Shown: positions 27,618 through 46,400, numbered from the stretch's first letter. The stretch is 64,000 bases of DNA from a virus (IMGVR_UViG_3300009694_000016:27960-91959); one strand, 5' to 3'. The notes: generated by a model from the letters alone, not told the origin. Numbers and translations: made by a program.

Positions 27618-29888
27618 TCACCACTTACGCTCAAAGGGATTTCGAATATCTCCAGGTTTCTGATTAAATGGACTCAAAAAAGGAATAGGTTTTACATCAG
27701 GCTTAATTTTTGGATAAAATCTTTTATAAGCTTTTCCATAGGAGTTATAATCAATCATACTTCCATCATCTTTGTTTCCTAAGAATTTTAATAATAATTG
27801 TTTTTCTCTATCTGTTAAAACATAGTCAACATAAGAATCTACTAGATTCTTAAAATCTGTATGATCGAATAAACTTGCCAAATTGATCATCGACATAACA
27901 CAATCATCATTACCACTAGAAGATTTGAAAGTTATTTCACCACTCGGCGTTTCTTTTTTAGAGAAAGATTTCAATTCTATAACAGTACTATCATTATGTA
28001 AAACCATACTGTCTTTTTTAATAGCATCTTGAAAATCTTTCAATAACAATTTTTTGTTTTGACCTATTAAAAGACCCAGTTTTGGTCTTTGATCTGATTC
28101 TCTATGTTTATATCTTGTAAATATAGCATCCATGAAATCATTGTTATCATTGAAAACGTGACGCATATTGTTGATCAAATCATTGCCAAGATTCTTATTC
28201 ATTTCAACAACTATTTTTACTTTCTCGGGATCAAAGATTTCAAATACTAATAAATATAATATGTGTGCTATTTCGTTTATAGAATAAACATTATTTCTAA
28301 ACATACCTATTTGTTCAAGTTTGAAAAGATCGTACTTATTGCTGTAAATATCTTTTTTTCTTTCTATTGTCTTCTCGTCTTTCATCATTAATCTAAACAT
28401 ATTAAAGACTGAATAATCTAATCCTAGACCTTCAGCTAAATCAATTCCTATGGTTATATAATAATCTTTCGCTCTTGCTAAATCAAATAAATCTGGTCTA
28501 TCTTTTATGAACTTTAAACTGGTATAAGGAAGACTAAATTTCTTATCAAATATTTCAAGTTGTGGAGTTTCAAATTCTACTTGATCGCTTTGGAAACTTT
28601 CAAACATTACACTATCGAAGAGCAATTTATCATCTGTAATAAATTGAATTTCAAACTCTTGTTTGAACATACTAGGACCTCCAATAACTCCGGTCTGCTC
28701 TTCCTGCCAGTTTGTTATTCTACAAATCTCTGGAAGTGGAATAATATCATTAATTCTCACTTGTCTTATATCATCTATTCCACATTTATCTCGTGGAGTT
28801 TTTTCATCCTTCTCAAAAAACTTTATTAAATACCAATCTTCACCATCTATCTTTTTATAATATGTTTCATATCCTATTTCCTTTAGTTTTTCTATAACTT
28901 CTTCTTTTGTTAAATTATATTGGCGAAGGCGCGATTCTATAAAATAAAGTTTTGTATCACGTCTACCTTTAACTTGATACCAATAGACTCTCATGGGTTG
29001 ATATTTATTCCATCGTGGATCTTCGCGCGGACGCTCGGCGTCTGTTAATAACTCCCAGAATAAGTTATAACCATCTGGGGTGGAAGTAATGATAATTTTA
29101 GAGTTTTCGATTGAAGATACAGTAGGTACAACAGATCCGTAGTAAGCACGAATGATATTATCTGGAACTTTCGCGAACTCATCCAAATACAGTAAATCAA
29201 TAGCAAAACCGATAGCTGGTTCTTTAGATCTAGATTGACTTTGAACTCTACTGTTATTTTCAAAGGCTATTTGTTTCTCGTTCCAGTTTGTTACACCTGT
29301 TTTTAAGAAAAATGGGAGTAACTTATATATGTCTTTTATTTTATGTATAATTTCTTTTACGGTTTCTGATTTGTTAGCAACAATCATAACACCCTTATCA
29401 TCGTTGAACAAAACCAGATGAAGAATAACAATGGATGCTGATATTGTATTTAAACTGAGTATGTCGTTTGTGTAATAACTATGTTCGTTAGTAGCAATGG
29501 ACAGGTCGAACATAGAAACTTTATGTTTGAATTTCTCGATAGATTTGACTTTACTAGGTCCTCTTTTAGTCAAAACAATGTCTCCGATTGTTAAATTTTT
29601 AATATACTTTATAATATGACCTTCACAAAAAATTCCATGAACATCCGCACACTCTAGTTCTAAATCATTTTCCAATTTTAACCTATATATGTCATATGGT
29701 TGAGTTAGATTTATTTCTTCAATAGGAACAAACCCGTAATCAGTCTCAACAGACAAATTATTTATTTGAAAAAAGTTAATAACCTTTTTTAACGGATCTT
29801 CTTGATCGAATGAATAATTTTTATACTCAATTTTTTCTATCAATTCTATTAAAAAATAAATTATATTTTTTATTAAATTTTTAATCAT
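27618..29888 (-). CDS. terL: Terminase large subunit, C-terminal part, preceded by the C-half of a split intein
   Basis: aa 1-147 intein blocks B/F/G ending ILSLN; then T, Walker B LLYLDEFA, ITSTPDG coupling motif, FKQEFE, nuclease IGIDLAEGLGLDYS and GNDDCVM. Confidence 0.92.
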   Translation of the reverse strand: MIKNLIKNIIYFLIELIEKIEYKNYSFDQEDPLKKVINFFQINNLSVETDYGFVPIEEINLTQPYDIYRLKLENDLELECADVHGIFCEGHIIKYIKNLTIGDIVLTKRGPSKVKSIEKFKHKVSMFDLSIATNEHSYYTNDILSLNTISASIVILHLVLFNDDKGVMIVANKSETVKEIIHKIKDIYKLLPFFLKTGVTNWNEKQIAFENNSRVQSQSRSKEPAIGFAIDLLYLDEFAKVPDNIIRAYYGSVVPTVSSIENSKIIITSTPDGYNLFWELLTDAERPREDPRWNKYQPMRVYWYQVKGRRDTKLYFIESRLRQYNLTKEEVIEKLKEIGYETYYKKIDGEDWYLIKFFEKDEKTPRDKCGIDDIRQVRINDIIPLPEICRITNWQEEQTGVIGGPSMFKQEFEIQFITDDKLLFDSVMFESFQSDQVEFETPQLEIFDKKFSLPYTSLKFIKDRPDLFDLARAKDYYITIGIDLAEGLGLDYSVFNMFRLMMKDEKTIERKKDIYSNKYDLFKLEQIGMFRNNVYSINEIAHILYLLVFEIFDPEKVKIVVEMNKNLGNDLINNMRHVFNDNNDFMDAIFTRYKHRESDQRPKLGLLIGQNKKLLLKDFQDAIKKDSMVLHNDSTVIELKSFSKKETPSGEITFKSSSGNDDCVMSMINLASLFDHTDFKNLVDSYVDYVLTDREKQLLLKFLGNKDDGSMIDYNSYGKAYKRFYPKIKPDVKPIPFLSPFNQKPGDIRNPFERKW
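29448..29888 (-). mobile_element. Split intein, C-fragment (147 aa)
   Basis: LECADVH (block B), MFDLSI..HSYYTNDILSLN|T (blocks F, G); lacks block A. Confidence 0.85.
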
Positions 29889-31332
29889 TTATAAATTTAT
29901 ATTTTAAGTGACCTGCGTCATATATCCTATATATATTTTTATCTATCATCGTTTCGTGCTCAGTTTTATTCGGATCCGCCCCTTCTTTTATCAATCTATC
30001 TTTTCTAAAACCAAATCTATGTTTCCTTATACCGTTTATAACATAATAATAATTTGGTCGTGTTTTGTGTTCCAAAACAAATTTTAATTTTTCGTACAGA
30101 TTCCCTTGACTCCAAGATCTATCGGCGTAACTTATAATTTCTTTTGGATTATATTTATCAACAAAATATTTAAACAAACGACTAGCTCCTCCACTAACAT
30201 TAGTGTTCAATTTATTACAAAATCTAAGCATTTCATATGATCCTTCAGTTGATCTTTGACCCAATGATTTTCTCAAATTTCCGAATGTCATTAATGATAC
30301 TAATTCATCATTATAAAATAATCCTACATTCATTTTAGAATTAACATATCCCTGAATATGATTATTATATAAAAATATTTTTAAAATTTCTTTATCTTCT
30401 ATCTCTTTTATAACACATTTTCTGGCCATTATTTTATTGGATTTATTTAGAAGATTTAAAATTCTAGATTTTACTATATTTTGCTTATAAGTCCAATCGT
30501 CCTCAAATATATGTATAAGTTGAATATTTTTTTCCTCGCACATCTCCGTCTTATTTAAATGATAGTTGTTGGGGACGTTCAATTCGTTGTGCCAATACAC
30601 TCCATTAAATTCTAAGGCTAATTTTAAACTCGGTAAATATATATCTAATTCTGTTCCAATAATTGTTTTGTTGTTTGTTAGAATTTCACCGTCATAATTG
30701 GACGATATAAATTCTAATAATTGTTTTTCTTTACCGCTTTTTGAGTATGAATTTATAGGATTGCATATAGGACATATTATTGTTTTATATTTTATTCTAT
30801 TGCCGAGTAAAGCAAAATCAATATCGAATGTATGATCTTTTCCGTTATCGCAATTAAAATTAGCAATATGATCTTTTACATAATTGATATTTAAATATTT
30901 ATATTTATCCAATAATCTTTGAATATATTTTATCTTATTTTTATTTATAACATCTTCGTTTTTTGAGGAAACCCCGAAACCATATTTATCTATACAGGTG
31001 CTTTCCAATTTTTTTCTTATGTCTTTATTTTGAATTGGACGACTACATCCATACCTTTCTTTATTTGTCATATTTATTTTTTCTTGACAACATTTCTGAG
31101 AGCAAGCGTAGAGATTGTATTTTTTATAATTTTTATAATAAACAAAATATTTTATTTCTTTTTCTCTTCCACAAATATCACATGATACTTTTACTAATTC
31201 TCTGGAATAATCCGGAAGATCTTCAGTGGGTATGATTATTTCATCATTGAATTTTACAGCATATCCTTTGTTTAAATAATAATTTAAATTTGGTTGCTTT
31301 ATTTTTATTTTAATTTCTTTTGATAATAGCAT
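29881..31332 (-). CDS. Hef-like homing endonuclease with C-terminal GNAT/Mom-like domain
   Basis: CDICG, KERYG/DKYG repeats, ELDIYLPSLKLALEFNGVYWH; C-terminal EMLRFC...GGASRL...ISYADRSWSQGNLY. Confidence 0.75.
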   Translation of the reverse strand: MLLSKEIKIKIKQPNLNYYLNKGYAVKFNDEIIIPTEDLPDYSRELVKVSCDICGREKEIKYFVYYKNYKKYNLYACSQKCCQEKINMTNKERYGCSRPIQNKDIRKKLESTCIDKYGFGVSSKNEDVINKNKIKYIQRLLDKYKYLNINYVKDHIANFNCDNGKDHTFDIDFALLGNRIKYKTIICPICNPINSYSKSGKEKQLLEFISSNYDGEILTNNKTIIGTELDIYLPSLKLALEFNGVYWHNELNVPNNYHLNKTEMCEEKNIQLIHIFEDDWTYKQNIVKSRILNLLNKSNKIMARKCVIKEIEDKEILKIFLYNNHIQGYVNSKMNVGLFYNDELVSLMTFGNLRKSLGQRSTEGSYEMLRFCNKLNTNVSGGASRLFKYFVDKYNPKEIISYADRSWSQGNLYEKLKFVLEHKTRPNYYYVINGIRKHRFGFRKDRLIKEGADPNKTEHETMIDKNIYRIYDAGHLKYKFIND

Positions 31333-31380
31333 TTAAAAAAAACAATTTTTATGATAGTAGCTAATAATATATATAAAATA

Positions 31381-31403
31381 AAAAAAGTCACTTTCGGGTG
31401 ACT
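31381..31403 (-). terminator. Probable intrinsic terminator
   Basis: agtcac..gtgact hairpin with GAAA-containing loop and U-tract on the minus strand. Confidence 0.55.
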
Positions 31404-31427
31404 AAATTTATTCATTTCATTATCAAA

Positions 31428-32141
31428 TTATAATTTGGATTGGTTTTCATCATATATAGTGAAGATTTCTTTCAACTCATCCTTCAGTTCTTCTTCAACA
31501 TTATTAACAAGAATGTTTCTTATATTTATATTTTTACTATCTAATACTACTTTTTCTTCTTCCTTTTTCTTTTCTGTGTAGAAAACATTATTAAATGTAT
31601 GATTGGAAAGATAAATATCTATTTTGTTCTTATATTCAGCTTTATTTAATAATTCACTATCTATCTCTACATCAATGAAATCTTTTGTTATCTCTAAAGA
31701 TTCTAATTCCTCTATGGATTTTATTTTATATTCCAAGAATCTTGGAGTATAAGTATTTTCAACAAATTTTTTTTCATCCTCAAATGTATAAAAACCTATT
31801 TTACATTTATTTTCTTTCGACAGTTGAAAAAGAGAAGCATCTTTTACTTTTGATATTAAATCATATGGATTGTAATCCAATGTGCTATTCAAAAATTCTT
31901 CAAACAATTCATGACAATATTCATTACCAATCAATTCTATTTTACTACAATTTAAATTTTTTATTATATCTCTTACTTTTGAAATAATAGGAAATGTAGT
32001 ATGTTTTGTATTATAAAATAAATCACCAATGATGATAATTTTATCCGCTTTCTTTCCTATTAAATATTCATCGAAGAATTCAAATTGATATTTGTAGAGT
32101 TTTGGATGTCCAAATTTTATATTATTTAAAACGAAAATCAT
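31428..32141 (-). CDS. Degenerate metallophosphoesterase (gp47/SbcD-like)
   Basis: IIIIGDLF retained; DxH motif replaced by NNIKFG and GNHD by GNEY. Confidence 0.5.
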   Translation of the reverse strand: MIFVLNNIKFGHPKLYKYQFEFFDEYLIGKKADKIIIIGDLFYNTKHTTFPIISKVRDIIKNLNCSKIELIGNEYCHELFEEFLNSTLDYNPYDLISKVKDASLFQLSKENKCKIGFYTFEDEKKFVENTYTPRFLEYKIKSIEELESLEITKDFIDVEIDSELLNKAEYKNKIDIYLSNHTFNNVFYTEKKKEEEKVVLDSKNINIRNILVNNVEEELKDELKEIFTIYDENQSKL

Positions 32142-32177
32142 AAAATATTTATATAATAAGTGAATGAAAGTTTAAAT

Positions 32178-32205
32178 AAAAAAGGGAGCTTTTTATGCTC
32201 CCTTT
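32178..32205 (-). terminator. Intrinsic terminator
   Basis: aaagggagc-tttttat-gctcccttt hairpin. Confidence 0.7.
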
Positions 32206-32226
32206 CCAAATCATTATGATAGATTT

Positions 32227-33036
32227 TTACACTCTTCTATCCATTTTTACTCCGGATAACAACGCAATTAAACTATTCAACATAGGTTTTTGCATGTTTG
32301 GTGGTATATTGGATACTACAGAGAATTCATTGTTGCCAGATATTTTTATCTGACGAGCACTTTCATTTAAAGATTTACTCTTTAAAAAATGACCAACTAA
32401 AGCGTGAACAAAAGGCTGAATTTCAAATCCTTTTTCATTATTTCTAATGACATGAATTTCATTTTGTTTTTCTGTTAGAAGATACCAATATTCTTCTTTT
32501 GATAAAAGTTTCTTTTCGAACATGTCAGTAATTTCAGAATATTTTATATCTTTGTAATAAACTAACTTGCCAATAGTTTTAATTCCATCAAAATTAGTAT
32601 TTTCTATTGTTAAATCTACTTGATTGTCTGGCGAATTTTGTTCTTCGCGTTGTTCGACTTCATCAATTATTTTCTTCTTCTTTTGTTGAACTCTTTCAAC
32701 TGGTTTTTCATTTTCATCCACTGTGGGTGATGGGGCTACATTTTCTTTTATTTCTGAAAATTTTCTAACATTTTTTTCAAATGTTCTGTTTTTTGGATAG
32801 TGTTCGGTTATATCATCCATAGTTACTTTGATAGAAGCATTATTTTTGCCTTTTAAAACATAATAGTTTTCGTAGACAGCGGACACTTCGCCTCTTATCT
32901 CTTTTTTATTATAGATGGCAACAAGTATATCTCCAACTCTTATGGAGCTATTACTCTCATATATAGACGGAGTATCATCCGTTTTTATATTTGATCGATA
33001 TATGTTGTATAACAAGTTTAAATCGTCTCTATCCAT
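32227..33036 (-). CDS. Hypothetical protein
   Basis: 269 aa; KOW-like IRVGDILV segment. Confidence 0.55.
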   Translation of the reverse strand: MDRDDLNLLYNIYRSNIKTDDTPSIYESNSSIRVGDILVAIYNKKEIRGEVSAVYENYYVLKGKNNASIKVTMDDITEHYPKNRTFEKNVRKFSEIKENVAPSPTVDENEKPVERVQQKKKKIIDEVEQREEQNSPDNQVDLTIENTNFDGIKTIGKLVYYKDIKYSEITDMFEKKLLSKEEYWYLLTEKQNEIHVIRNNEKGFEIQPFVHALVGHFLKSKSLNESARQIKISGNNEFSVVSNIPPNMQKPMLNSLIALLSGVKMDRRV

Positions 33037-33104
33037 TTCTTTTCAAAAATAAAGGTCTATCATTTTTTGATATTTAAATAGACCTTATATTTTATATTAT
33101 TTTT

Positions 33105-33611
33105 TTATATAGCCTGTCCTCCTTGTGCTGGAGGAATTTGAGCTGCTGTTTTTTGTGCTCCCTGTGCTGGAGGAGCGCCTTGAACTGGTTGTGCTCCCGG
33201 TTGAGCTTGAGCTCCTGGTTGAGCAGGTGGTTGAGCTTGAGGTTGACCCTGAATTGGTTGAGTTTCATCTAAACCTTCAGTATCTGGTTGTCCTTGAGCT
33301 TGAGCTTGACCTTGAGCTTTTGAATATTGATCACCCAAAATTAAGTTAACAGGAAGATTTTCAATGCTAACATAAGATGTGATGATATAATCCGCAATCT
33401 CCTCAGATAATTCTACATCTGAATAGAATTGACTAATATTCTTACCACTTTCATCTTTTACTTTCTTCTTAAAAGCATTAACAAGTGACATTGGAATATC
33501 AATTCTTTTTCTAACTCTGTAGATATCATCAACAGCTTGAACGTTCTCTGTCAAATGGCTGATATTTCTTTTGCCTTGAAATTCGCCAAATTCGTATAAA
33601 TTCTTTGTCAT
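33105..33611 (-). CDS. Hypothetical with Gln/Pro/Ala-rich tail; CTS-like N-terminus
   Basis: MTKNLYEFGEF; AQPGAQ repeats; TAATATATA upstream. Confidence 0.6.
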   Translation of the reverse strand: MTKNLYEFGEFQGKRNISHLTENVQAVDDIYRVRKRIDIPMSLVNAFKKKVKDESGKNISQFYSDVELSEEIADYIITSYVSIENLPVNLILGDQYSKAQGQAQAQGQPDTEGLDETQPIQGQPQAQPPAQPGAQAQPGAQPVQGAPPAQGAQKTAAQIPPAQGGQAI

Positions 33612-33667
33612 ATGATTTGTATTATTTTTTTAGTATATATTAAATTTTTTTTCTTGTTTTTTATATA

Positions 33668-35800
33668 TTAAATTGCAATGTTCTGTTGTGGTGGTTTTAA
33701 TGAAAGTTCTCCATATTTTTTCGAAATTGTCCATTTATTAGTTCTTGTACTGACCAATTTTGATGTTATTATATCAGTTCTATTGCATGCTGTATTGAAT
33801 ATACCATTTACCCATACTCCTCCAAATAAAGTACCTTCAAAAGTTCCATCGTGGAAAGTGCCTCCATAAAAACCTCCTCTATCATCAGCGGGGTTACACC
33901 CAGCCCCTCTTCCATTTATGAAAGTTCCTCCATAAAAATTTCCATTCCACCAGTTAGTATAATTTGTTGAGTTGTTTCTTCCAAATATTCCACTGTTGAA
34001 TGTTCCTCCACTCCAATTAATAGTAGGTTCATCTAAATATATTTTAACTCCTATATTACCGCTATTCCATACACCATTATACCAATCTACGTTATGGAAA
34101 TATGAATTTGTAACAGTACCATTTATAAATATACCATTTAACCAACTACTATTTGTAAAGTTTCCATATCTGAATGTTCCACCACTCCACAAACTACTGT
34201 CTGTAAATGTTCCATTATTGAAAGTGCCTCCACTCCAAACACTATTTGTAAATGTTCCCCCGTTGAATGTTCCATCTCTCCAATATTTAGATTCGTTTGA
34301 AAAATATACTGTTTCTCCAGAAATAGAAATAGCGTTATTTTGTGAATTGAAAGTGCCTCCATTAAATGTACCTCCACTCCAGAATGTATTTGTAATATTA
34401 CCACCGTTGAATGTTCCATCATACCAATTTCCAGTAGAAAATGTACCGTTGTTGAAAGTTCCTCTTATCCAGTTTGTATTTAAAATATTTCCACCATTAG
34501 AAGTACCTCCATACCAGTTACATTGAGTCATATTTCCACCATTGAATGTTCCATCAGCCCACTCTGTATTATAAATATTTCCACCGTTGAATGTTCCGCC
34601 ACTCCAAATGCTATTATACATATTACCACCTTGGAATGTTCCAGTTCGCCACGTAGAGCCCGAGAAAGTTCCGCTATTGAAAACTCCATTTCTCCATTCT
34701 TTTCCTATAAACTCACCGCCATTCCAAACACCATCATACCAAACATCTTGATTAAATGTTCCGCCGCTCCATATAGCATAATACCAATAAGAATCAGCGC
34801 TAATATGAGTATTTGAGAAAATTCCTCCATAAATAAATGCTCCGCTAATATTACAATTTGTAAATATGCCACCATTTATTGTACAATCTGATAATTCACA
34901 TAAATCGTACCAGCCGTTGTCTATCTGACAATTGTGAAGATGGTTCTTATATATATGATTATATCCATAACCGTTGTTGTTGTTAGTATAATAAGAAGAT
35001 ACAGGAGTTGGATCTTGGTTTAAACTATCAGCTCCTTTATATATGTATGGCTTATAAAATGATGTTGTAAATCCAGTATCAATTGTTGAATTCGTAGATA
35101 TGTAAATTTCATCATATTTGTCTTTATATCTTATATAATATGATTCGCCACTAAAAACTAAAGCTTGAATTAAATTTATATCTATAGACGTGCTCACTTC
35201 ATTGTTAAATTTGCAGTTTCTTATTTCAACACCGTCTATTTCACCGCCTCTTATCTCGAGATTATTTATGTATATCTCTCCTATATAATGCTCATATATT
35301 TTTTTATTAACAAATCTCGAATCATAATAACGATCTATTGTTATTTCATTATTACTGCCATTTATTTCTAAAACTTCATATCCTTGCAATTGTGGAAGAT
35401 ATATGTAATTCGTACATCCAGAAAATTCTATAAAATTATCCAATATTATAGCATCTGTGTATCCACTTGTTGTTCCACTATTATAAAAATTATACATTAA
35501 AAACACTCTATCTCCAACTTTTATATTCGAATTTATTTCAGTATATAATTTAATTTTACCATTATTATTTGTTATTACAGGTAATAATTTTACAGCGTTT
35601 GGAGATGTTGAATATATTGTATCATTATAAATATTAACTTTTTCTTGTTGAGTTACAACTTCTTCTTGAGCCACTTGCACATCTTGTGCAGCTTGAGTTA
35701 CGGTCAATCCTGTTATTGGAATTGGAGTATTTCCAACAAACTTTATAACCGGTGTTGGATATACAATAGTCTTCTTTTTTGTGGCTAGCGTTCTCTGCAT
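33668..35800 (-). CDS. Beta-solenoid repeat protein, probably structural
   Basis: Many W-x-x-G-T-F-N-x-G repeats with about 15-aa period in the C-terminal half. Confidence 0.7.
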   Translation of the reverse strand: MQRTLATKKKTIVYPTPVIKFVGNTPIPITGLTVTQAAQDVQVAQEEVVTQQEKVNIYNDTIYSTSPNAVKLLPVITNNNGKIKLYTEINSNIKVGDRVFLMYNFYNSGTTSGYTDAIILDNFIEFSGCTNYIYLPQLQGYEVLEINGSNNEITIDRYYDSRFVNKKIYEHYIGEIYINNLEIRGGEIDGVEIRNCKFNNEVSTSIDINLIQALVFSGESYYIRYKDKYDEIYISTNSTIDTGFTTSFYKPYIYKGADSLNQDPTPVSSYYTNNNNGYGYNHIYKNHLHNCQIDNGWYDLCELSDCTINGGIFTNCNISGAFIYGGIFSNTHISADSYWYYAIWSGGTFNQDVWYDGVWNGGEFIGKEWRNGVFNSGTFSGSTWRTGTFQGGNMYNSIWSGGTFNGGNIYNTEWADGTFNGGNMTQCNWYGGTSNGGNILNTNWIRGTFNNGTFSTGNWYDGTFNGGNITNTFWSGGTFNGGTFNSQNNAISISGETVYFSNESKYWRDGTFNGGTFTNSVWSGGTFNNGTFTDSSLWSGGTFRYGNFTNSSWLNGIFINGTVTNSYFHNVDWYNGVWNSGNIGVKIYLDEPTINWSGGTFNSGIFGRNNSTNYTNWWNGNFYGGTFINGRGAGCNPADDRGGFYGGTFHDGTFEGTLFGGVWVNGIFNTACNRTDIITSKLVSTRTNKWTISKKYGELSLKPPQQNIAI

Positions 35801-35872
35801 TTAGAAATATCTTTTGTCCTATATATTAAATTTTGAAAACTAAATAGTAAAAAAATAATATAAATTTAAAAT

Positions 35873-36229
35873 ATGTACTGTTTTATGAATGAAGAATTGG
35901 AAAAGAAGAAAACTGATCTTCGCGAGAGACTCGAAAGCGAACTCTATGTTGAGAGATATGACACTTTTAAAGAATCTGTAGATTTAATAAATAAGGCTCT
36001 TGAGTTTTTTAAGATAGATCATAAATACACATACGATGAGTTTTGTCAAGATTTTACAACAGAGTGTATGAAATATATGGATGAAAATCCAAAAACAGAC
36101 ATGAACGATCCTCGTCAAATGGCGATATCCATATTTCCAATTGTGATGTCAATAGTAGATAGGACAAAAGATAAATACGGATTTAAAAATGATAAACTGG
36201 ATAGCAAAAATACTGAACAAGAAGTATAA
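35873..36229 (+). CDS. Hypothetical protein
   Basis: 118 aa ORF. Confidence 0.55.
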   Translation: MYCFMNEELEKKKTDLRERLESELYVERYDTFKESVDLINKALEFFKIDHKYTYDEFCQDFTTECMKYMDENPKTDMNDPRQMAISIFPIVMSIVDRTKDKYGFKNDKLDSKNTEQEV

Positions 36230-36995
36230 AGAAGAATTGGAAAATGATGAAATAGATCGATTTTTCGCGATAGAAGAAAAAATAGATGAAGAATCTTCTC
36301 TTTCGCCTAAAAAGATTCTACCCCATAACAGCGGATCCACTTCGAAAGATGATAAAAGTTTTCCAAAATTTCTATCTTCTAGTGGTGTCACTTTCATGTC
36401 TGAAGATGATAAAAAAGAAGAAGAAAAAGAAAATCCAAAAGAATGGTCTTCTGGAAATTTTTCTATAAAGGAAGAGAAAAAAGAAGAATTTCAAAATCCA
36501 TATGGATTACCGTTACAGCAATGTAGTAATAAAGCTGTTGTTAGAAAAAATGGTGTTTCTGGAACATCCGGTCCAAGTAGGTATTGTGGGCCAAGTGGAA
36601 CATCTGGTCAATATGGTAGAATAAGTGGAGGAAGATCTGTTTGTAGTATATCTCCAATGTCTTTTTCTGAATATATCGCAGAGAATCTAGATAAAAATAT
36701 TGATTGCTCACAATATATTGCTGATAATCTAGATAAAAATATTAGTTACACGGAATACACGGCTGAGAATGGAGCACTTACTACAAAGGCGACATCTATT
36801 GTTAACGCCGACGTGAATGCCTCTGCTGCGATCGCATACACTAAACTTGCACTTGCTAACTCAATCCTGAACTCGGATATTAACCCAGCCGCACCACAGC
36901 TTATTCAAGAAGCGAAATATCTAGCTAAGAAAGAAGAATCAAAAAGAATTTACTCACCCGAAGATCCTTATGGTGAGGAAGATTGGAATGAATAA
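36189..36995 (+). CDS. Mosaic hypothetical protein with DPYGEEDW tag
   Basis: GTSG fragment, EYIAENLDKNI repeats, fibre-like IVNADVNASAAIA segment, C-terminal tag. Confidence 0.6.
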   Translation: MINWIAKILNKKYKEELENDEIDRFFAIEEKIDEESSLSPKKILPHNSGSTSKDDKSFPKFLSSSGVTFMSEDDKKEEEKENPKEWSSGNFSIKEEKKEEFQNPYGLPLQQCSNKAVVRKNGVSGTSGPSRYCGPSGTSGQYGRISGGRSVCSISPMSFSEYIAENLDKNIDCSQYIADNLDKNISYTEYTAENGALTTKATSIVNADVNASAAIAYTKLALANSILNSDINPAAPQLIQEAKYLAKKEESKRIYSPEDPYGEEDWNE

Positions 36996-37306
36996 TGAAG
37001 ATAAGAAAAATTATTGAGAATGATATAGTAGAAGATATATCAACCTACAAGGATATTTTTAATTCTTTTATCGAATTTATTAGAGAAGTAGAACCAGATT
37101 ACGAACCCAGTTTTACTTTCAACGAGTTTTGTGTTAAATTCTTGAACAATTTTAAAGGAGTAGATGATGAACTTTCTTCTTATAGTGAGGAAATTCCATT
37201 AACAGATAATCTTATGAACTCTATTATGGACATTGCTTTAGAAGAATTTAAAGATGATGAAGAAAAATGTGAAAAAATTAAAAATATTATTAAGGATATA
37301 CAGTAA
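36995..37306 (+). CDS. Hypothetical protein
   Basis: 103 aa, TAATG overlap with the upstream stop. Confidence 0.55.
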   Translation: MKIRKIIENDIVEDISTYKDIFNSFIEFIREVEPDYEPSFTFNEFCVKFLNNFKGVDDELSSYSEEIPLTDNLMNSIMDIALEEFKDDEEKCEKIKNIIKDIQ

Positions 37307-37481
37307 ATACAATGTTTGGACTATATATTTTTAATATATAAAATGTCGAATTTTTAAACTTTATTAGAAGTTCGATATAGAATAAACGAGGTGCTTTTAG
37401 CACACCCAAGGCTTTTTCAGGCTTAAATGAAATTAATGGAAGAATAAAGGCTTTCATTTACAAAAAAAAATCGTATGCATT

Positions 37482-38519
37482 ATGGCAGAGTACAAAGACA
37501 AAGATGAAAATTTCTTGTTTGAATCATCAGATGAGACTCAAAATGAGGAATTAGCGTTTCTAAACAAAGAAACAAAAAATCAAGACGGTATCTATCGTCC
37601 AAACGTGAAAGACGCAGCCGACCCAAAGGGAGCTGGTTACAAAGCAACAATTAGATTTCTAAGAAATGTTTATTTAGATGGATCGGGCACAGGCCCAGCC
37701 GCTATTACTAAGCATGTTCACTACGTAAAACCCGAGGGAGTTTTAGAAGATTATCCAGACTTAGCTGGTTATTATGATTGTGAAAAGAATATTTCACAAC
37801 AAACACCTTGCCCATTATGCCAAACTTATTGGAAACTTTACAAATCCAATAATCAGGCTGATGTTATCAAAAGTGGTTTGATTAAAAGAGCTACTAAATT
37901 TTATTCCTATATTATGGTAATAGAAGATGAGCAACATCCAGAGTTGGTTGGTAAGATTTTAGTTTATCCTTATGGAGCTAAGATTAAGGGCAAAATCAAC
38001 GCTGAAATTAATGGCGAAGTTAGTGGTGAGAAATGTAATATTTTCGATTTCGTAACGGGCAAGGATTTTAGACTTATTATTAAAGTTGTTAAAACTCCTA
38101 ATCCAAATGGAAGTGGCACCGTCGATATGCCAAATTATGACACCAGCACATTTTTACCATCTTCGCCTATTAAGATTTGGAACGACAAAGCACAAAAATT
38201 TGTCACTCCTCCAACAATAGAAGATGAAAATGGCAAAATCATGATCGCTGATAAGAAATGGCAGGCTAAGATAAGAGAAATCATTTTGAGCCGTCCATCT
38301 AACGTCAATCTTGATGATCACATGCCTAACAAAGAAGGTTGGGACGATGTAAAAAGATCAAACGTTGATAAAATCGTTCAGGTTCTCAATGGAAGCGCAG
38401 TAGCGTATGCTGAATCGTCAATAAAGAAAACTGGTCAAAAGACACCAGCAGCTGAAATAATTGAGGAAGAATCTTTCGAAGATTTATTTGCGGATTTTGA
38501 CGACGATGAAAAGAAGTAA
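37482..38519 (+). CDS. Single-stranded DNA-binding protein (T4 gp32-like)
   Basis: ATIRFL, C...PCPLC zinc site, YSYIMVIEDEQHPELVGKILVYPYG.KI, IFDFVTGKDFRL, NYDTSTF, acidic tail. Confidence 0.9.
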   Translation: MAEYKDKDENFLFESSDETQNEELAFLNKETKNQDGIYRPNVKDAADPKGAGYKATIRFLRNVYLDGSGTGPAAITKHVHYVKPEGVLEDYPDLAGYYDCEKNISQQTPCPLCQTYWKLYKSNNQADVIKSGLIKRATKFYSYIMVIEDEQHPELVGKILVYPYGAKIKGKINAEINGEVSGEKCNIFDFVTGKDFRLIIKVVKTPNPNGSGTVDMPNYDTSTFLPSSPIKIWNDKAQKFVTPPTIEDENGKIMIADKKWQAKIREIILSRPSNVNLDDHMPNKEGWDDVKRSNVDKIVQVLNGSAVAYAESSIKKTGQKTPAAEIIEEESFEDLFADFDDDEKK

Positions 38520-38532
38520 TTTTCATTAAAAG

Positions 38533-38562
38533 AAAAAAGCCCACATTTCTGTGGGCTTTTTT
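38533..38562. terminator. Bidirectional intrinsic terminator
   Basis: aaaaaagcccaca-tttc-tgtgggctttttt between convergent genes. Confidence 0.85.
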
Positions 38563-38563
38563 A

Positions 38564-38782
38564 TTACCATCTTTCTCCCCCGAAATACGAAGGTTCTTTA
38601 TGTGTGAAAAGTTCTATATTAGTTCTACCACAATTTGGACACTTTTTTCCTTTTTTATCAGATTCTTTGGCCATGAATTTGTGTTTACAATCCCAACAGT
38701 AATATTCTTTTTTGCTTTCTTTTGGACTTTTAAAAATTTTAAATTCTTCGAATGTTTTCATATTTTTAAGTTTTTTCTCCAT
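38564..38782 (-). CDS. Small zinc-ribbon protein with CTS-like N-terminus
   Basis: MKTFEEF; CWDC...CPNC. Confidence 0.65.
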   Translation of the reverse strand: MEKKLKNMKTFEEFKIFKSPKESKKEYYCWDCKHKFMAKESDKKGKKCPNCGRTNIELFTHKEPSYFGGERW

Positions 38783-38800
38783 TGTTATTTTAATTTTTTT

Positions 38801-39187
38801 TTAATGAAATCCAAAAATTCTTCCAACCTTGTCTACGTGATCATATAAATATTCTCGCTCTCTATCTGTTAATAATTCTCTTATTCTTCTTTGTACTTCT
38901 CTGTCATTATCAATATTACCATGAAAATTCATTATCATTTCATCTTCAGATAATTTATCTATAATATTTTTCAGATATTTATGTTTTTTATACATTTCTT
39001 TTAAATAATCAATACCATTCTCTGCTAATATACTTGTCCCTAAAGTTGGAATAGCGCAAAGAATTCTACCAAAAGCGTTGTACCATCCAACTAAAGAGTC
39101 TCCTTTAATTAAAAGATCTTCTCCTTTTTCGGGTTTTTCAAATTTAAATTCCTCGAATGTTTTAATATTTTCAAATTTTTTTTCCAT
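38801..39187 (-). CDS. Hypothetical with CTS-like N-terminus
   Basis: ENIKTFEEF. Confidence 0.6.
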   Translation of the reverse strand: MEKKFENIKTFEEFKFEKPEKGEDLLIKGDSLVGWYNAFGRILCAIPTLGTSILAENGIDYLKEMYKKHKYLKNIIDKLSEDEMIMNFHGNIDNDREVQRRIRELLTDREREYLYDHVDKVGRIFGFH

Positions 39188-39194
39188 TGTTATC

Positions 39195-39632
39195 TTATTT
39201 TTTCATTTTGTCTTTCATTAAATTTTTCATGAAAGCCTTGCGTTTCTTTTCGTGTTCGGGATCCTTGTATCTGCTTCTTTTGGCTTTTCCTTTCATTAGT
39301 TCTGCATACTGCTTATCATCGGGAGCTGTCATGCAAGCTTTACAAAACTCTTCAAACACCATTAGATTTTTCATTTTATATTGTTTATTTTTTTCGAATG
39401 ACTGTTCCCCGTAAAAATCTCTAGCGTTCCCACCGTGTTTCTCCCATTCTTCTACTTCAGCTCTATCCTTTTCATTTTTTATTCTTTGCCTGCGTGCAAC
39501 CTCGGCGTTATCATCTTCCGATGGTTGTCTGTCGATATTATCTCTTTCGTAATTTGTGTATTCTTCTTCGCCCATTTCGCAATTTAGGTAGCGAACCATA
39601 TCTTCGTCGTATTCTTCATATATTCTTTTCAT
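39195..39632 (-). CDS. Hypothetical charged protein with CTS-like motifs
   Basis: MKRIYEEY start and internal MKNLMVFEEF. Confidence 0.6.
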   Translation of the reverse strand: MKRIYEEYDEDMVRYLNCEMGEEEYTNYERDNIDRQPSEDDNAEVARRQRIKNEKDRAEVEEWEKHGGNARDFYGEQSFEKNKQYKMKNLMVFEEFCKACMTAPDDKQYAELMKGKAKRSRYKDPEHEKKRKAFMKNLMKDKMKK

Positions 39633-39648
39633 ATCATTGGATTATTTT

Positions 39649-40125
39649 TTAAAATTGTGGTAATTGAGTTGATCTAATTTCTTTTCCCAACAAGCGACTC
39701 ATCTCACTCGCAATCCATCTTGATCCTTTACGATCGATATAACATTTTTTAGGAAAATTGTTGACATCGTAAATATCCATTGAACATCCAGGTCGACCAA
39801 CATCTCCCACCGAAATAAATCGTATACGCGAACTATTTGCAAAATCCAAGTGATTTTGAATATTAAACTTGATATATCTATCTTTATCCGTCGGAAGTGC
39901 TGCCATAACAATCCCAGGTTGAAGAAGAACATCATAAACTTCATCAGATCCTTCCAACTTGACTTTTATATTATTACCGTAGACTTTATTCTTACGTTCT
40001 CCTGCTAATGTAGCGAGACGTTTGCCACGCGGATCGTTGCGTTCATGACCATATTTTTTTAGTTTGTCATAAGTTTCTATATTCAATTCATTTAAGAATT
40101 CGTCAAAGTTCTTCAACGTGTTCAT
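39649..40125 (-). CDS. Hypothetical with CTS-like N-terminus
   Basis: MNTLKNFDEFLNE; TAATATATA upstream. Confidence 0.6.
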   Translation of the reverse strand: MNTLKNFDEFLNELNIETYDKLKKYGHERNDPRGKRLATLAGERKNKVYGNNIKVKLEGSDEVYDVLLQPGIVMAALPTDKDRYIKFNIQNHLDFANSSRIRFISVGDVGRPGCSMDIYDVNNFPKKCYIDRKGSRWIASEMSRLLGKEIRSTQLPQF

Positions 40126-40179
40126 CTTCTTTGATTTTATTTTTATTTATTTATATATTAAATAAATAAATTGAAATTT

Positions 40180-40872
40180 TTAAGCATTGAGAAAATCAAG
40201 ACATTCCTCATCGAAATATTCGGATTGCTTTGTTGGGTCCTCACCACCGCCCCATCCAGCGTTTTGTTTTTTGCTGAATTTATGATCAAATCTTACCAAA
40301 TACATTGGATTAAAACTTCCCCAATAATCTATAACCACTCCTTTTTTACCTACAAATTCTTTTTTGTTTACTGTTTCGTATTCGTTTCGATCTATTTGAA
40401 TTTCATAAGGGATTGCTGCTTTATCGTTAATCACAACAGAATCACCAGGCTTAAATTTATATTTTAATTTATTTCGACTTAATCCATATTTTTTATAAAC
40501 ATCCCATCTTGGATGTCTCCACGATTCTTTTTTATTTTCTTCACATTCTTCTTTTGTTTTAAACATATTTTCTTCGTCTGCATGAAGAACTATTTCTTTT
40601 GACTCGTCTGGTGTGCCCCAATCCTCTTCACCGTAAGGATCTTCTTTTGAATAAATTCTTTCGCTTGGTTTAATAGTACTACTCAAATCATAAGACCATA
40701 TGTATGGATAATTTTCTGGAGTGCGATGGACACCAAATATTTCATAATAACCACTTCGATCCGTTGACATACTCAAAGGATCATATTCATAATAAACAAT
40801 ATCACCTTTTTTATATTTAGCGTCGCTGAAATTTATATTTTCTAATATATATTCACAATATTTTTTGATCAT
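40180..40872 (-). CDS. Hypothetical; CTS-like N-terminus, two KOW/SH3-like modules, DPYGEEDW tag
   Basis: Likely start MIKKYCEYILE at 40872; YKKGDIV, FKPGDSV. Confidence 0.6.
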   Translation of the reverse strand: MIKKYCEYILENINFSDAKYKKGDIVYYEYDPLSMSTDRSGYYEIFGVHRTPENYPYIWSYDLSSTIKPSERIYSKEDPYGEEDWGTPDESKEIVLHADEENMFKTKEECEENKKESWRHPRWDVYKKYGLSRNKLKYKFKPGDSVVINDKAAIPYEIQIDRNEYETVNKKEFVGKKGVVIDYWGSFNPMYLVRFDHKFSKKQNAGWGGGEDPTKQSEYFDEECLDFLNA

Positions 40873-40889
40873 GAACTTATATATTGATT

Positions 40890-41852
40890 TTATATTTTGA
40901 GAAAGTTGAGGCATTCTTGGAGAATTTTATCGGGATGCGAACGATATTCAGAATCCCAAACTACATGAACGGAGAACCCATTTTCTTCTGCTACTTCCAA
41001 TTTTCTTTTATCTTTTTCCCAAATTTGTTCGGCCGTATATTGTTTTCTGAACGGGTGAGAAATATCGTCCTTTTCAAAATAATTTGGATTGGCATGATAT
41101 TCATCGCCGTTATACTCTATCATTTTTTTATTTTTCAAATCTGTATAATCATATATCCATATACCGCCTTCTTTTTTAGGTAAATTAAATTCTTTGTTTT
41201 TAGTGGCAAAAAATATATTTTTATGATCTTGAAAATCGTAATTTTTTAGTATGTCATAAAATAAAATTTGAGAAGATTTTGAAAATCCGTGTTTCAAATT
41301 GCCGTTATCGTTTAAGCTTTTTTGCCATTTTTTCTGCCTTTCACTAAAAATTTCTCTGCCTTTTTCTTCTCCGTATTTTTCTATACATTTCTTCAAAGTG
41401 AAGGTTTTCTGTCTATTGGCTAACATTTTTTCGGATTCTTCTTCTGTATAACCTCTAGATATATAGTATTCTATTCTCATTGGTCTTTTCTCTGGGGGTA
41501 TTTCTTTTTGAACTTTTCTAGCAAACTCTAAAGCTTCATTTTCATCTTTATATTTAATAAAATGTTTAGAGAAAGGACTTCTACTTTTTCTCTCTTCTTC
41601 TGTGGCCTTTGCTTTACTGTTTGGGTTGTTTTCACCACTAAACATTTCGGAAAACATTTTTTTATATTTTTCCTGTTTCATGTGTTTTCCAGAATTTTTA
41701 GTGGTATTTTTATTATCCGATTTATTATAAAGCGGAGCACCAGGATATAATTTTAAATATTCTTTTGATGTTAAACCGTGACTTTTGAGATGCCTACCAT
41801 AAATTCTTGTAGATTGTTTGCCACAAATTTTACAAGTAATCAAATCTTCCAT
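40890..41852 (-). CDS. Free-standing homing endonuclease-like protein (PD-(D/E)XK)
   Basis: CKICG...HLKSH zinc finger, GENNPNS NUMOD-like, YDY...IEYNGDEYHANP...VVWDSE; directly downstream of terL N-part. Confidence 0.75.
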   Translation of the reverse strand: MEDLITCKICGKQSTRIYGRHLKSHGLTSKEYLKLYPGAPLYNKSDNKNTTKNSGKHMKQEKYKKMFSEMFSGENNPNSKAKATEEERKSRSPFSKHFIKYKDENEALEFARKVQKEIPPEKRPMRIEYYISRGYTEEESEKMLANRQKTFTLKKCIEKYGEEKGREIFSERQKKWQKSLNDNGNLKHGFSKSSQILFYDILKNYDFQDHKNIFFATKNKEFNLPKKEGGIWIYDYTDLKNKKMIEYNGDEYHANPNYFEKDDISHPFRKQYTAEQIWEKDKRKLEVAEENGFSVHVVWDSEYRSHPDKILQECLNFLKI

Positions 41853-41918
41853 ACGAACTATTCTTTATTCGTATATATAAAAATAATTATGGCTTAAAGT
41901 CAAAAAAGTAAAAGTATT

Positions 41919-42467
41919 TTAAATTTTTTCTAAAATTTTGTACAAAAAAAGTTTTATTTTTTCAAGAAAAGTTAATTTGCGATTTTCTGATAACTTATCA
42001 TAATAAAGTCTCCCTATACAAATAGAAAATATATCCCCGGTTAGATCGTCTTTGCATAACAGCTTGGTATTCAATGAGATACATTTTCCAATTTGACGTG
42101 ACGCCATTAAAATACTATAACGATTTTCAGTATATAATTTAATAATATCCTTTTGATAATCTCTTAGTGTCATTTGACCTATACTACCATCCTCGAGTTT
42201 AATCTTACAATAATGTTCGGCAAAATAATAAACAGACAATTTACATCTTATGTATTCTTCTATTTCAGCTTGAGTCATGGCGAATTTTATGCCCTTTCTT
42301 CTAACACCCTCATTTGAATTGAACCATAGTCTTTCTGTTCGCTTCAAAGGAAGAGCCATGCTCTCTTTTTCTATAATTTCTTTTACTTTTTCTGTTGTGA
42401 TGATATTGGTTTCATCTGTCTTGGAATCCTTTTGTGCGTTGGCTATATTCTTTTTTGGTCTTGCCAT
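41919..42467 (-). CDS. terL: Terminase large subunit, N-terminal part, followed by the N-half of a split intein
   Basis: EYIRC...YFAEHYCKI...LRDYQ (Q motif), truncated Walker A SRQIGK, then CISLNT intein block A. Confidence 0.9.
   Translation of the reverse strand: MARPKKNIANAQKDSKTDETNIITTEKVKEIIEKESMALPLKRTERLWFNSNEGVRRKGIKFAMTQAEIEEYIRCKLSVYYFAEHYCKIKLEDGSIGQMTLRDYQKDIIKLYTENRYSILMASRQIGKCISLNTKLLCKDDLTGDIFSICIGRLYYDKLSENRKLTFLEKIKLFLYKILEKI
41922..42083 (-). mobile_element. Split intein, N-fragment (54 aa)
   Basis: CISLNTKL...SICIGRLY block A pattern immediately after GK. Confidence 0.8.
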
Positions 42468-42666
42468 AATTTTTATTTCTTTTTAAAAATCTAGAAATTT
42501 TTATTGATATATATAAAAACAATCATGACCAATTTTATGACCTATTTTTTAATACAAACATTATACCTACTATTTTTCAAAAATTATTAAACCTTATATT
42601 GAAGTTAGTATATAAACTTATCAATAAGTATATGGCTATGCTATATAAAAAAAATAAATATTAAAT

Positions 42667-43454: not shown

Positions 43455-46400
43455 ATGAAAGGTAATCAATTTACAAATGAGCTGAGTCTTGAAATATACG
43501 AACACACGTATAAATATGGAGACGAAACTATAGAAACTACTCAAAGAAGAGTCGCTGAAGATATATCTTCAGTTGAAAAAGACAGAGAACTATGGACTAA
43601 CAAATTCCTAGAAATACTTGAAGATTTTAAGTTTGTTCCTGGTGGAAGAATAATATCAAACGCTGGTACCAAAATCAGAGGAACTACGTATATTAATTGC
43701 TTTGTCGACGGGTTTGTTGGCAAACATCAAGATTCTGTATCAGGAATACTCGAAGCGCTTCGTCGACAGGCATTCATTTTAAAATCAGAAGGAGGTTATG
43801 GTTTTTGTGCAGATGTTATGAGACCTAGGGGTGGATACATCGAAGGAATAGCCAATGATACTCCAGGGGCTGTAAAATGGCTAGATAATTGGAACACACA
43901 ATCTGATGTTATTACTGCTGGGAGTGGTAGAAGATCAGACAACAAAAAAGCAAAACAGAAGATCAGAAAGGGCGCTCAAATGGTCACAATGTCTTGCTGG
44001 CATCCAGATATTGAAGAATTTATTACAGCTAAACAAACTCCAGGAAGATTGGATAAATTTAATATGAGTGTTTTAATTGCAGATGATTTCATGAACGCAG
44101 TTATAGCCAATCAAAAATGGGATTTAATTTTTCCAGATTTTGATAAAGCTAAAGAAGTTTACAATGAAACATGGGACGGAAATCTGAAAAAGTGGGTGGA
44201 AGAAGGTCATCCAGTAAAAATTTATAAAACTTTCAAAGATGCTAATGAATTATGGGATCTTATAATGAAATCCACTTATAATAGAAATGAGCCTGGTGTT
44301 CTTTTTGTAGATACAATGAATAGATTGAATAACCTTTCATATTGCGAGTATATTAATTCCACAAATCCCTGCTTGGCTGGAGATACCATAATAGCCGTTG
44401 CTGACGGGAGGATGAATGTAAGTATAAAACAATTAGCAGAAGAAGGTAAAGATGTACCTGTTTATTGTTTAGATGAAAAAGGCAATTTATCAATAAAAAT
44501 CATGAGAAATCCAAGAATAACTGGATATGATCAACAGATTTATAAGATAAATATTGAAAATGGACATTCAATCAGAGTAACAGGAAATCATAAGTTTAGA
44601 CTTAGAAACGGGGAATATGTAGAAGCTAAGGATTTAAAACCAGGTGATAGTCTTCATTTATTAACTAAATATGAAGCATCTATAAAAGAAATATTTCCCG
44701 GTGCCAATTCTAGAAGTTCTGATTATTATTGGTTAAATAACGGAGATTTTAAAGTTAACAAGTCCGAACATAGGTTTATTTATGATAATTTGATTGGAAA
44801 AATTGGAGAGGGGAACGTTATTCATCACAAGGACTTTAATAGTTTAAATAATTCTATTGATAATTTATTAGAAATGAATAAGAAAGATCATGATGAATAT
44901 CATAGTAAAGATATGTTAGGTGAAAAAAATCCATATCACAAAATGTCAGATGAATGGAAATTAAATTTTGCCTCACATAAAGGGGAAACAAATTCTAAAT
45001 ACATTAACATTACTAATGAAGAATTGAAAAATCATGGTATAAATTTAACCAAAAAATTAAATAGAAGATTTTCGAATAAAGAATGGATGGAATATGCTAA
45101 AGAACATAATCTACCTCAACAGTTCTCTAATTTTAGAAGATCTGAATTGGGCAGTGTTATAGAATTTTCAAAAAAAATATCATCTGAGATAAAAATAGAC
45201 GAAAAATTAATATCAATGGATCCTAGACTCGTCAAAACTTATAACAAAGCTTTAGATGATGGATATAATGTTAAAATAGAAAATAATGAAGTTTATGTTG
45301 AAAAAACTTGTGAAACTTGCGGAGAAGAATTCTGGACAAAATATTTCACAAGAGAAATTTCTTTTTGTTCTATTAAATGTTCTACTCAATATTTAAACAC
45401 TAACGAAGAAATTAAAAATAAGAGAAAAATAAGCAGTGATAAATATTATAACAATAACTCAAAATTAAATAAAGTTAAACAACTAAATGTTTTTACAGAA
45501 TTGAGAATGAATTTAAAAAGAGATCCTTTTGTAAAAGAATGGGAAGATGAATGCTCTAATAAGAACATCCCCCATAGATTAAATACAAAAAGAGGATTTA
45601 AAAATTTTTCTGAATTAAAAGAAAACGCTGAAGTTTATAATCATAGGGTAATTTCAGTAGAACTAGATAACATTGAAAATGTTTATAATGGAACCGTAGA
45701 TCAATACCATAACTTCTTTTCCGGTGAATTTAAAGAATTTACAAAATCTGGAAAAAATAAATATTTGTATATCAATCAAATGCAATGCGGCGAACAAATT
45801 CTACCCATTGGTGGTGTTTGTCTTTTAGGAAATCTTAATCTTACTCAATTTATCAAAGAAGATCTATCTGGATGGGATTATGACAAATTGAAAGAAATTA
45901 TACCCACTGCTATTCGTTTTATGGATAATGTAAATGATCTTACCTATGTGCCATTGGAAGATCAGAAACAAAATCTTAAAAACAAACGTAGAATAGGTCT
46001 TGGAATTCTTGGTTATGGAAGTGCTCTTTTAATAATGAAAAAAAGATATGGTAGCCCCGAAGCTCTTAAAATTACTGAAGAATTGATGAGTTTTATAGCA
46101 AATACTGCCTATCAATCATCAGCATTGTTAGCTGAAGAAAAGGGAGCTTTCCTACTTTATGACACTGATAAATATTCAAAGAGTAATTATCTTAAAGTAT
46201 TATCAAAAGAAACAAAAGATTTGATCAAGAAACATGGAATTAGAAATTCACATTTACTTTCAATTCAACCAACGGGTAACAGCTCGATCCTCGCAAATGT
46301 TGCTTCGGGTGGATTGGAGCCAGTGTTCCTTTTTGAATATGTCAGAACAGTTATTCAACCATATGCTCCAGACGGTCTTGCTCTTCCACAAAATGTTGAT

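Follow-up and report, generated by a model that had tools for sequence, protein, structure and literature searches.

Two unlinked genes for a T4-type large terminase in a huge-phage clade, predicted to be rejoined by an atypically split intein

How can a phage package its DNA when its large terminase (TerL) is encoded by two genes lying 12 kb apart? This question was raised by a viral DNA stretch of 64,000 nucleotides (IMGVR_UViG_3300009694_000016:27960-91959; the whole stretch is referred to here as the window), which was part of an IMG/VR record 92 kb in length (CheckV completeness, 13%). The only recognisable large terminase in the window consisted of two unlinked genes, one for the N-terminal half (N-half) and one for the C-terminal half (C-half), and each was fused to one piece of a split intein. 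It is considered highly probable that these split TerL genes have their products rejoined by protein trans-splicing, and that they arose via a fractured-gene state followed by a single relocation.

The N-half open reading frame (ORF; 41919-42467, minus strand) encoded 182 amino acids (aa), namely a terminase part up to K128 (SRQIGK) and then 54 aa from CISLNT to the stop codon. The C-half ORF (27618-29888, minus strand) encoded 756 aa, with residues 1-147 ending in ILSLN and followed by TISAS. A stop codon closed the N-piece and an ATG opened the C-piece, and the two intein pieces were therefore separate ORFs, each fused to one extein (Table 1). These ORF boundaries, both junctions, and the 54- and 147-aa pieces had been proposed in an initial annotation of this DNA and were borne out by translation. 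The TerL profile PHROG 5989 matched N-half residues 44-130 at positions 86-171 and C-half residues 148-273 at positions 170-288, and Pfam Terminase_6N matched C-half residues 151-297 (E 1.6e-8). On the T4 gp17 structures, N-half K128 was placed at chain position 191 and C-half T148 at position 192; since these positions are consecutive, the join loses and duplicates nothing, and the joined TerL has 128 + 609 = 737 aa with the Walker A GKT rebuilt, zero residues being lost or doubled. The SRQIGK+T Walker A and the 737-aa product of the initial annotation were reproduced by this alignment, and intact (intein-free) relatives likewise read GKT at Walker A. The gp17 alignment of the C-half took in the NDDCVMS (HDD-type) motif region of the nuclease; Pfam Terminase_6C gave no match in the C-half, and the nuclease domain rests on a weak gp17 alignment (domain E 0.49) plus conservation. 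Pairwise ratios of nonsynonymous to synonymous substitution rates (dN/dS) among relatives were 0.01-0.24 for the exteins. From these alignments, the two exteins are read as the halves of one T4-type large terminase.

The two halves were separated by 12,030 nt (41919 - 29888 - 1) with 15 ORFs in between, four of which lay on the plus strand (35873-38519), opposite to both halves; the ORF listing agreed with the initial annotation on gap length, gene number, and the four opposite-strand genes; the initial annotation had named no strand for the halves. The strongest terminator-like hairpin of the region, a bidirectional one (38533-38562), was located at the convergence of these plus-strand genes and the minus-strand unit of the N-half. 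Because the four opposite-strand genes and this hairpin intervene, the N-half and C-half genes are predicted to be unable to share a transcript, and the earlier proposal of a bidirectional terminator and separate transcripts was upheld.

Table 1. Coordinates of the terminase halves, intein pieces, and neighbouring features in the window
Feature	Coordinates	Strand	Description	Basis
TerL N-extein	42084..42467	-	aa 1-128 of N-half; ends with Walker A ...SRQIGK	Translation, PHROG, T4 gp17 alignment
Intein N-piece	41919..42083	-	54 aa + stop; Cys1/block A, one more strand region, amphipathic tail of ~22 aa	
Intein C-piece	29448..29888	-	147 aa; helix at N-terminus (aa 2-21), followed by blocks B (CADVH), F, and G (ILSLN)	
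TerL C-extein	27618..29447	-	609 aa + stop; begins with Thr+1; remaining ATPase domain and nuclease region	
Vsr-like homing endonuclease gene	40890..41852	-	Free-standing, 320 aa; directly downstream of N-half	
Second endonuclease gene	29881..31332	-	Free-standing, 483 aa; stop overlaps C-half start codon by 8 nt	
Conserved core block	31428..38519	.	Nine ORFs, from 237-aa ORF at 31428 to gp32 single-stranded DNA-binding protein (37482-38519)	tblastn synteny
Five small ORFs of unknown function	38564..40914	-	Downstream of Vsr-like gene; mostly absent from 735-kb relative	
Bidirectional terminator-like hairpin	38533..38562	.	13-pair stem, A-run on one side, T-run on the other	
Terminator-like hairpin	31386..31403	-	Just before unit of 483-aa endonuclease gene and C-half	
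TATATATA promoter-like box	42508..42515	-	48 nt upstream of N-half ATG	

The intein pieces were compared with TerL of Vibrio phage VAP7 (NC_048765.1), which contained a contiguous 179-aa insert at the identical GK/T site. The window N-piece aligned to the start of this insert and the C-piece to the rest of it, covering blocks A (Cys1), B (CADVH versus CADDH), F, and G; tblastn against VAP7 TerL gave 35% identity over C-half residues 34-320. A total of 11 N-halves and 14 C-halves were compared, and the catalytic residues were kept with the sole exception of an intein-terminal Gln in LR756500 (a distant 462-kb phage): Cys129 of the N-half (intein Cys1), which follows GK, was invariant in the N-halves of 11 relatives, and block-B His, terminal Asn, and Thr+1 were invariant in 12 aligned C-pieces. 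Pairwise dN/dS lay at 0.06-0.19 in the C-piece and 0.09-0.39 in the N-piece, both pieces being under purifying selection. The C-piece was modelled with AlphaFold2 from a 12-sequence alignment (predicted local distance difference test score 71), giving an N-terminal helix and then a beta-rich body, and a Foldseek search with this model returned 18 PDB matches at E ≤ 0.001, all of those listed being inteins: the best fold matches were VidaL 6vgv (E 1e-5), GyrA, RadA, and gp41-1, while the highest identity (26%) was found with 6DSL chain B (Cat consensus). The C-piece is predicted by the model to take the Hint fold, and the two fragments aligned to complementary parts of a single Hint domain; the initial annotation had expected such a fit, and both the VAP7 alignment and the matches of the C-piece model to solved inteins favoured it.

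In the proposed mechanism, the two proteins would be made separately, the intein pieces would dock into one Hint fold, Cys1 and Thr+1 would perform trans-splicing with cyclisation of the terminal Asn, and the GK/T P-loop would be restored to give an active 737-aa terminase. Since the unspliced ATPase site carries a 201-aa insert, packaging should depend on splicing.

Six points weigh against trans-splicing of one terminase from these halves: (i) the penultimate block-G residue of the intein was Leu instead of His, a feature pointed out in the initial annotation and confirmed in translation, and Leu was found in most of the clade; (ii) dS was near saturation in many pairs, so that dN/dS leans on the closer pairs; (iii) Pfam Intein_splicing stayed below its curated cut-off (E 0.0063 for the window, 9e-6 for the 735-kb relative); (iv) the promoter-like boxes upstream of the two halves (see below) are consensus matches only; (v) the splicing activity itself is something we infer from sequence; and (vi) about 13% of the window's own genome was present, and the absence of another intact terL, the presence of which the initial annotation had named as refuting, held for the 735-kb relative rather than for the window genome. 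As for the first point, a penultimate His is not universal among active inteins, and inteins without it can splice; this His was present in L029, VAP7, and PhiW-14, and the Leu appears to be a conserved clade trait, not a recent lesion. As for the second, the closer pairs (LR756501 with L037, and L040 with L044) gave the same dN/dS answer. As for the third, Intein_splicing was sub-threshold even for the contiguous VAP7 intein, and the intein call was therefore based on alignment, conservation, and fold; the profile searches suggested by the initial annotation succeeded for the terminase part (Terminase_6N) and reached sub-threshold level only for the intein.

The halves might instead pair non-covalently via their intein pieces as a two-chain terminase, the intein being inactive, e.g., for want of the penultimate His. 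The Leu at that position would suit such an enzyme, and intein-free two-chain phage enzymes do exist, the split NrdA of phage Aeh1 being an example given in PMC2677866. However, it is the Walker A loop itself that is interrupted, between its K and its T, which would leave 201 extra residues in the ATP site of an unspliced enzyme; Cys1, block-B His, terminal Asn, and Thr+1 stayed invariant over long divergence, which is unexpected for docking alone; and the penultimate Leu is itself conserved across most of the clade. A two-chain terminase is accordingly held to be improbable, and trans-splicing is preferred.

The window represents part of a huge T4-like phage genome, for which the closest annotated relative was LR756501.1 (735,411 bp), which had 76% and 71% identity for the two halves and carried them 12.4 kb apart in the same orientation as in the window; the record size and the 13% completeness fit a genome of about 700 kb. 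In length, LR756501.1 and three further hits (634,780, 636,363, and 642,428 bp) agree with circular huge-phage genomes that were manually curated by Al-Shayeb et al. 2020 (PMC7162821), a paper in which inteins were not mentioned. A search of the whole of LR756501.1 found, as the only other TerL-like gene, a 390-aa ATPase-only paralogue that had GIT for GKT and no nuclease domain; this GIT-type paralogue cannot replace TerL. Both halves were intact ORFs in every relative. It would be quite unlikely, then, that the halves are decaying remnants and that DNA is packaged by another terminase gene elsewhere in the genome: the small share of the genome in the record and the second TerL-like gene in the 735-kb relative leave some room for such a gene, but the paralogue lacks the Walker A lysine and the nuclease domain, no further TerL match was found in the curated 735-kb genome, and the intact halves with their low extein dN/dS do not look like remnants.

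The 390-aa paralogue was located at L016 664-1836 (minus strand), corresponding to about 699.9-701.0 kb of LR756501.1. A similar ATPase-only paralogue of 270 aa, with GIS at Walker A, was found in the 462-kb phage (L003 3333-4145, minus strand). The ATPase-only TerL paralogue may serve as a regulatory or scaffold subunit.

The dispersed gene order was also found in contigs that came from other samples, namely IMG/VR 3300045006_000141 (halves 12.3 kb apart) and IMG/VR 3300042261_000671 (halves 9.0 kb apart, without the endonuclease genes), and it was common to at least four independently assembled records; the comparison of gene order in related phages, called for by the initial annotation, spoke for a dispersed layout that does not appear to be an assembly artefact. 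That the 12-kb gap arose in assembly and the halves are truly adjacent is barely conceivable: the record is a short-read metagenome contig, but the records sharing the order were assembled separately, one of them is 735,411 bp long, and their spacer lengths and endonuclease gene content vary as real divergence would have it.

Three states of terL were recognised among the relatives: (a) intact without intein in L046-L049, LR745206.1, and LR756504.1; (b) fractured with adjacent halves, in the order N-half, Vsr-like gene, and C-half, in L040, L044, and LR756500.1, with L041 and L042 having the fractured adjacent form plus a second endonuclease gene; and (c) dispersed in the window, LR756501.1, L036/L020, L045/L028, and L038/L039. 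States (a) and (b) had, directly upstream of terL, the block that runs from gp32 to the ORF 31428 homologue, and in L041 the homologue of ORF 42667 abutted gp32. In state (c), the N-half (together with its endonuclease gene where present) sat between the ORF 42667 homologue and gp32, and therefore the gp32 block now separates the halves. In a maximum-likelihood tree of the C-exteins, all dispersed alleles formed one clade of nine (support 100/100), while the sister clade mixed fractured and intact alleles and included the almost identical L044 (fractured) and L046 (intact). As the dispersed alleles fall into one clade, the relocation would have occurred once, in the ancestor of this clade, and have persisted while its members diverged substantially; gain or loss of the element appears to go on in the sister clade.

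The path would have begun with a mini-intein at the P-loop site that was broken by an inserted Vsr-like homing endonuclease gene, giving the fractured-gene state; the cassette of N-half and endonuclease gene would then have been relocated about 9-12 kb upstream, past the gp32 block. Moving a 1.6-kb cassette and moving a 9-kb block yield an identical final gene order. The halves of L045 were dispersed and 9 kb apart, and both endonuclease genes were lost. A 194-kb contig (IMG/VR 3300010429_001696) contained the C-half alone, and a 163-kb contig (IMG/VR 3300010352_001405) contained the N-half plus the gp32 block without a C-half; the halves may therefore lie much further apart in some relatives.

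The 320-aa gene downstream of the N-half had a homologue in the gene that LR756500.1 carries between its adjacent halves (30% identity, E 4e-29) and showed 49-58% identity to the copies in L040, L041, and L044. Of eight members of this family, seven gave weak matches to MTES_1575 and two gave matches to DUF559. A PDB sequence-profile search with the 320-aa endonuclease found nothing useful, and only the fold comparison pointed to Vsr/I-Bth0305I: the modelled C-domain matched Vsr (1vsr) and I-Bth0305I (3r3p) with probability 0.98-0.99 at weak E-values. The 320-aa gene is of the same endonuclease family as in Dassa et al. 2009 (PMC2677866).

The 483-aa gene next to the C-half matched PHROG 3339 'homing endonuclease' (E 2.5e-109) and also PHROG 559; it was present or absent at the C-half spot among relatives and multi-copy in several loci. 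Copies were found in L026, L030, L031, and L054, with three within 5 kb in L054, and its motif E-F-N-G-x-Y-W-H resembled the Vsr-like motif of the 320-aa gene. In the conserved core block, gp32 had a Pfam match with E 1.6e-13.

The expression units of the two halves were examined for promoter-like elements. TATATATA, a palindromic octamer, had 12 copies in the window, nine of them intergenic: besides the copy upstream of the N-half (Table 1), one at 29928-29935 lay 47 nt upstream of the C-half ATG, within the 3' end of the 483-aa endonuclease gene, and further copies at 41872-41879 and 31368-31375 meant that the box preceded both endonuclease genes as well. Six relatives had kept it upstream of the N-half and three upstream of the C-half, and it is taken, with low confidence, as a candidate promoter-like element shared by the two halves. 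Many ORFs (e.g., 7146, 20045, 20622, 22201, 33642, 35828, 40160, 54034, 54062, and 63625) had TAATATATA upstream, at 12-48 nt from the start codon and on the correct strand; these sites probably represent a phage promoter class that is related to the TATATATA boxes preceding the terminase halves. A sigma-70 promoter scan was uninformative in this AT-rich DNA (113 sites versus 96 expected).

The sequence comparison was extended to known systems, the closest being the fractured genes of Dassa et al. 2009 (PMC2677866), which consist of a split intein and a free-standing endonuclease gene, Vsr-like or GIY-YIG in type, between the halves; one member of that set is a gp17-like terminase from Lake Gatun, which has an unusual break point and a C-piece of 122 aa. 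The window resembled these genes in having a T4-type terminase broken by a split intein, a long C-piece with all motifs but the first, and a Vsr-like endonuclease gene directly after the N-half, and the adjacent form itself was seen in L040, L044, and LR756500.1. Unlike them, the window halves were not adjacent, being 12 kb and 15 ORFs apart, including gp32 and four opposite-strand genes, and one relative of the window lacked both endonuclease genes with the halves still 9 kb apart. AceL-TerL, GOS-TerL, and Cat consensus are characterised atypically split terminase inteins (Thiel 2014; Bachmann and Mootz 2015; Stevens 2018; PDB 6DSL) according to PMC11766414. They share with the window intein a short N-piece without block B and a long C-piece with blocks B, F, and G (54 + 147 aa here; C-pieces of about 104-122 aa where given in PMC2677866 and PMC11766414), but differ in that (i) the window intein ends in SLN followed by Thr+1, while Cat ends in SHA followed by Cys, and Cat (6dsl_B) gave a weak profile match (E 0.036), (ii) the window pieces have extra amphipathic segments, namely an N-piece tail of ~22 aa and a C-piece head of ~25 aa, and (iii) the window intein has no penultimate His. 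The likeness to AceL-TerL drawn in the initial annotation therefore holds for the atypical split point and fails for the +1 nucleophile (Thr here, Cys in Cat consensus); the window intein would work like AceL/GOS/Cat, yet it is not a close member of that group. The VAP7-type contiguous TerL mini-inteins have the same GK/T insertion point and homologous splicing blocks, but are encoded in a single ORF and splice in cis.

The cyanobacterial DnaE split intein is encoded by two genes lying far apart on the chromosome, the products of which are rejoined by protein trans-splicing. Unlinked DnaE halves are described in the introduction of PMC2677866. DnaE and the window terminase are alike in being essential enzymes from two unlinked genes with protein trans-splicing (predicted for the window), but DnaE is a different host protein of a cellular genome with a canonical split (long N-piece and short C-piece), whereas the window has a phage packaging motor, the reverse asymmetry, and intermediate stages surviving in relatives. 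The published literature searched on split inteins, terminases, and huge phages did not describe dispersed halves for a phage terminase; in it, the unlinked layout was described for cellular DnaE, not for phage structural or packaging genes. What appears to be new here is a fractured, atypically split TerL intein with unlinked halves that is fixed in a huge-phage clade.

If this reading is true, trans-splicing between unlinked gene products is needed for the packaging motor in a clade whose members include the 735-kb phage, which a 2020 description called the largest phage genome known at that time. The relatives keep the full path from intact through fractured to dispersed and offer a natural test case for split-intein fixation, and the new atypically split Cys1/Thr+1 pair with conserved terminal helices could serve protein ligation. 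Unless the halves are joined, TerL of huge phages will be missed or cut short when annotation and phylogeny are based on terminases. In the record of the cultured Delftia phage PhiW-14 (NC_013697.1), which had the same split with the halves 49 nt apart (L005 2000-2467 and 2516-4273), the label 'terminase large subunit' was given to the C-half alone; the 155-aa N-half ORF, which has the intein N-piece at its end, carried no annotation.

The N-piece tail (41922-41990, minus strand) and the C-piece head (29826-29888, minus strand) were conserved amphipathic segments outside the Hint core; within the modelled helix of the head and just beyond it, I10, Y11, I14, E18, E21, and N24 were invariant in 12 C-pieces. 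A docking role of these helices is possible. A more far-reaching proposal is that the relocation of the N-half was an evolutionary ratchet fixing an obligatory intein, and that the terminal amphipathic helices are a dedicated docking module for unlinked products; this is regarded as speculative and somewhat unlikely. Under the ratchet, an intein-free allele could no longer be restored by homing or precise deletion because the halves lie apart, which would fix the intein step, and packaging could depend on expression of both loci. The tail and the head were also considered as a duplicated segment, which was rejected: 71 to 759 of 2000 composition-preserving shuffles scored as high at the protein level in five genomes, so that composition accounts for the resemblance, and the DNA match of tail versus head was an A/T-rich stretch (5/1000 shuffles reached its score).

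Other inteins were found among the relatives and in the window. The pair of atypically split intein and Vsr-like gene seen in terL also fractured three other genes in a relative (L038 183-3148, L055 186-2332, and L056 2-3993; IMG/VR 3300010352_001405 and 3300025867_000010), which encoded a DnaB-like helicase (homologous to window ORF 47809-49155), an ABC-type ATPase, and a ClpB-like AAA+ protein; all three breaks were at the Walker A GK/(T/S), and the ClpB-like gene additionally had a LAGLIDADG intein. The element of split intein and endonuclease gene seems to move between P-loops. L052 1630-3718 (IMG/VR 3300023112_000199) had another, different TerL intein with an atypical split, at a site after the ATPase domain. 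Its N-piece was 34 aa long, its +1 residue was Cys, and its adjacent ORFs overlapped; these traits make it look nearer to the characterised AceL/GOS type. In the window, the ribonucleotide reductase large subunit (43455-47402, plus strand; 1315 aa) contained a full contiguous intein that included an HNH endonuclease domain (Intein_splicing, aa 314-756; HNH_3, aa 439-479), and the copy of the 735-kb relative was shorter (1160 aa).

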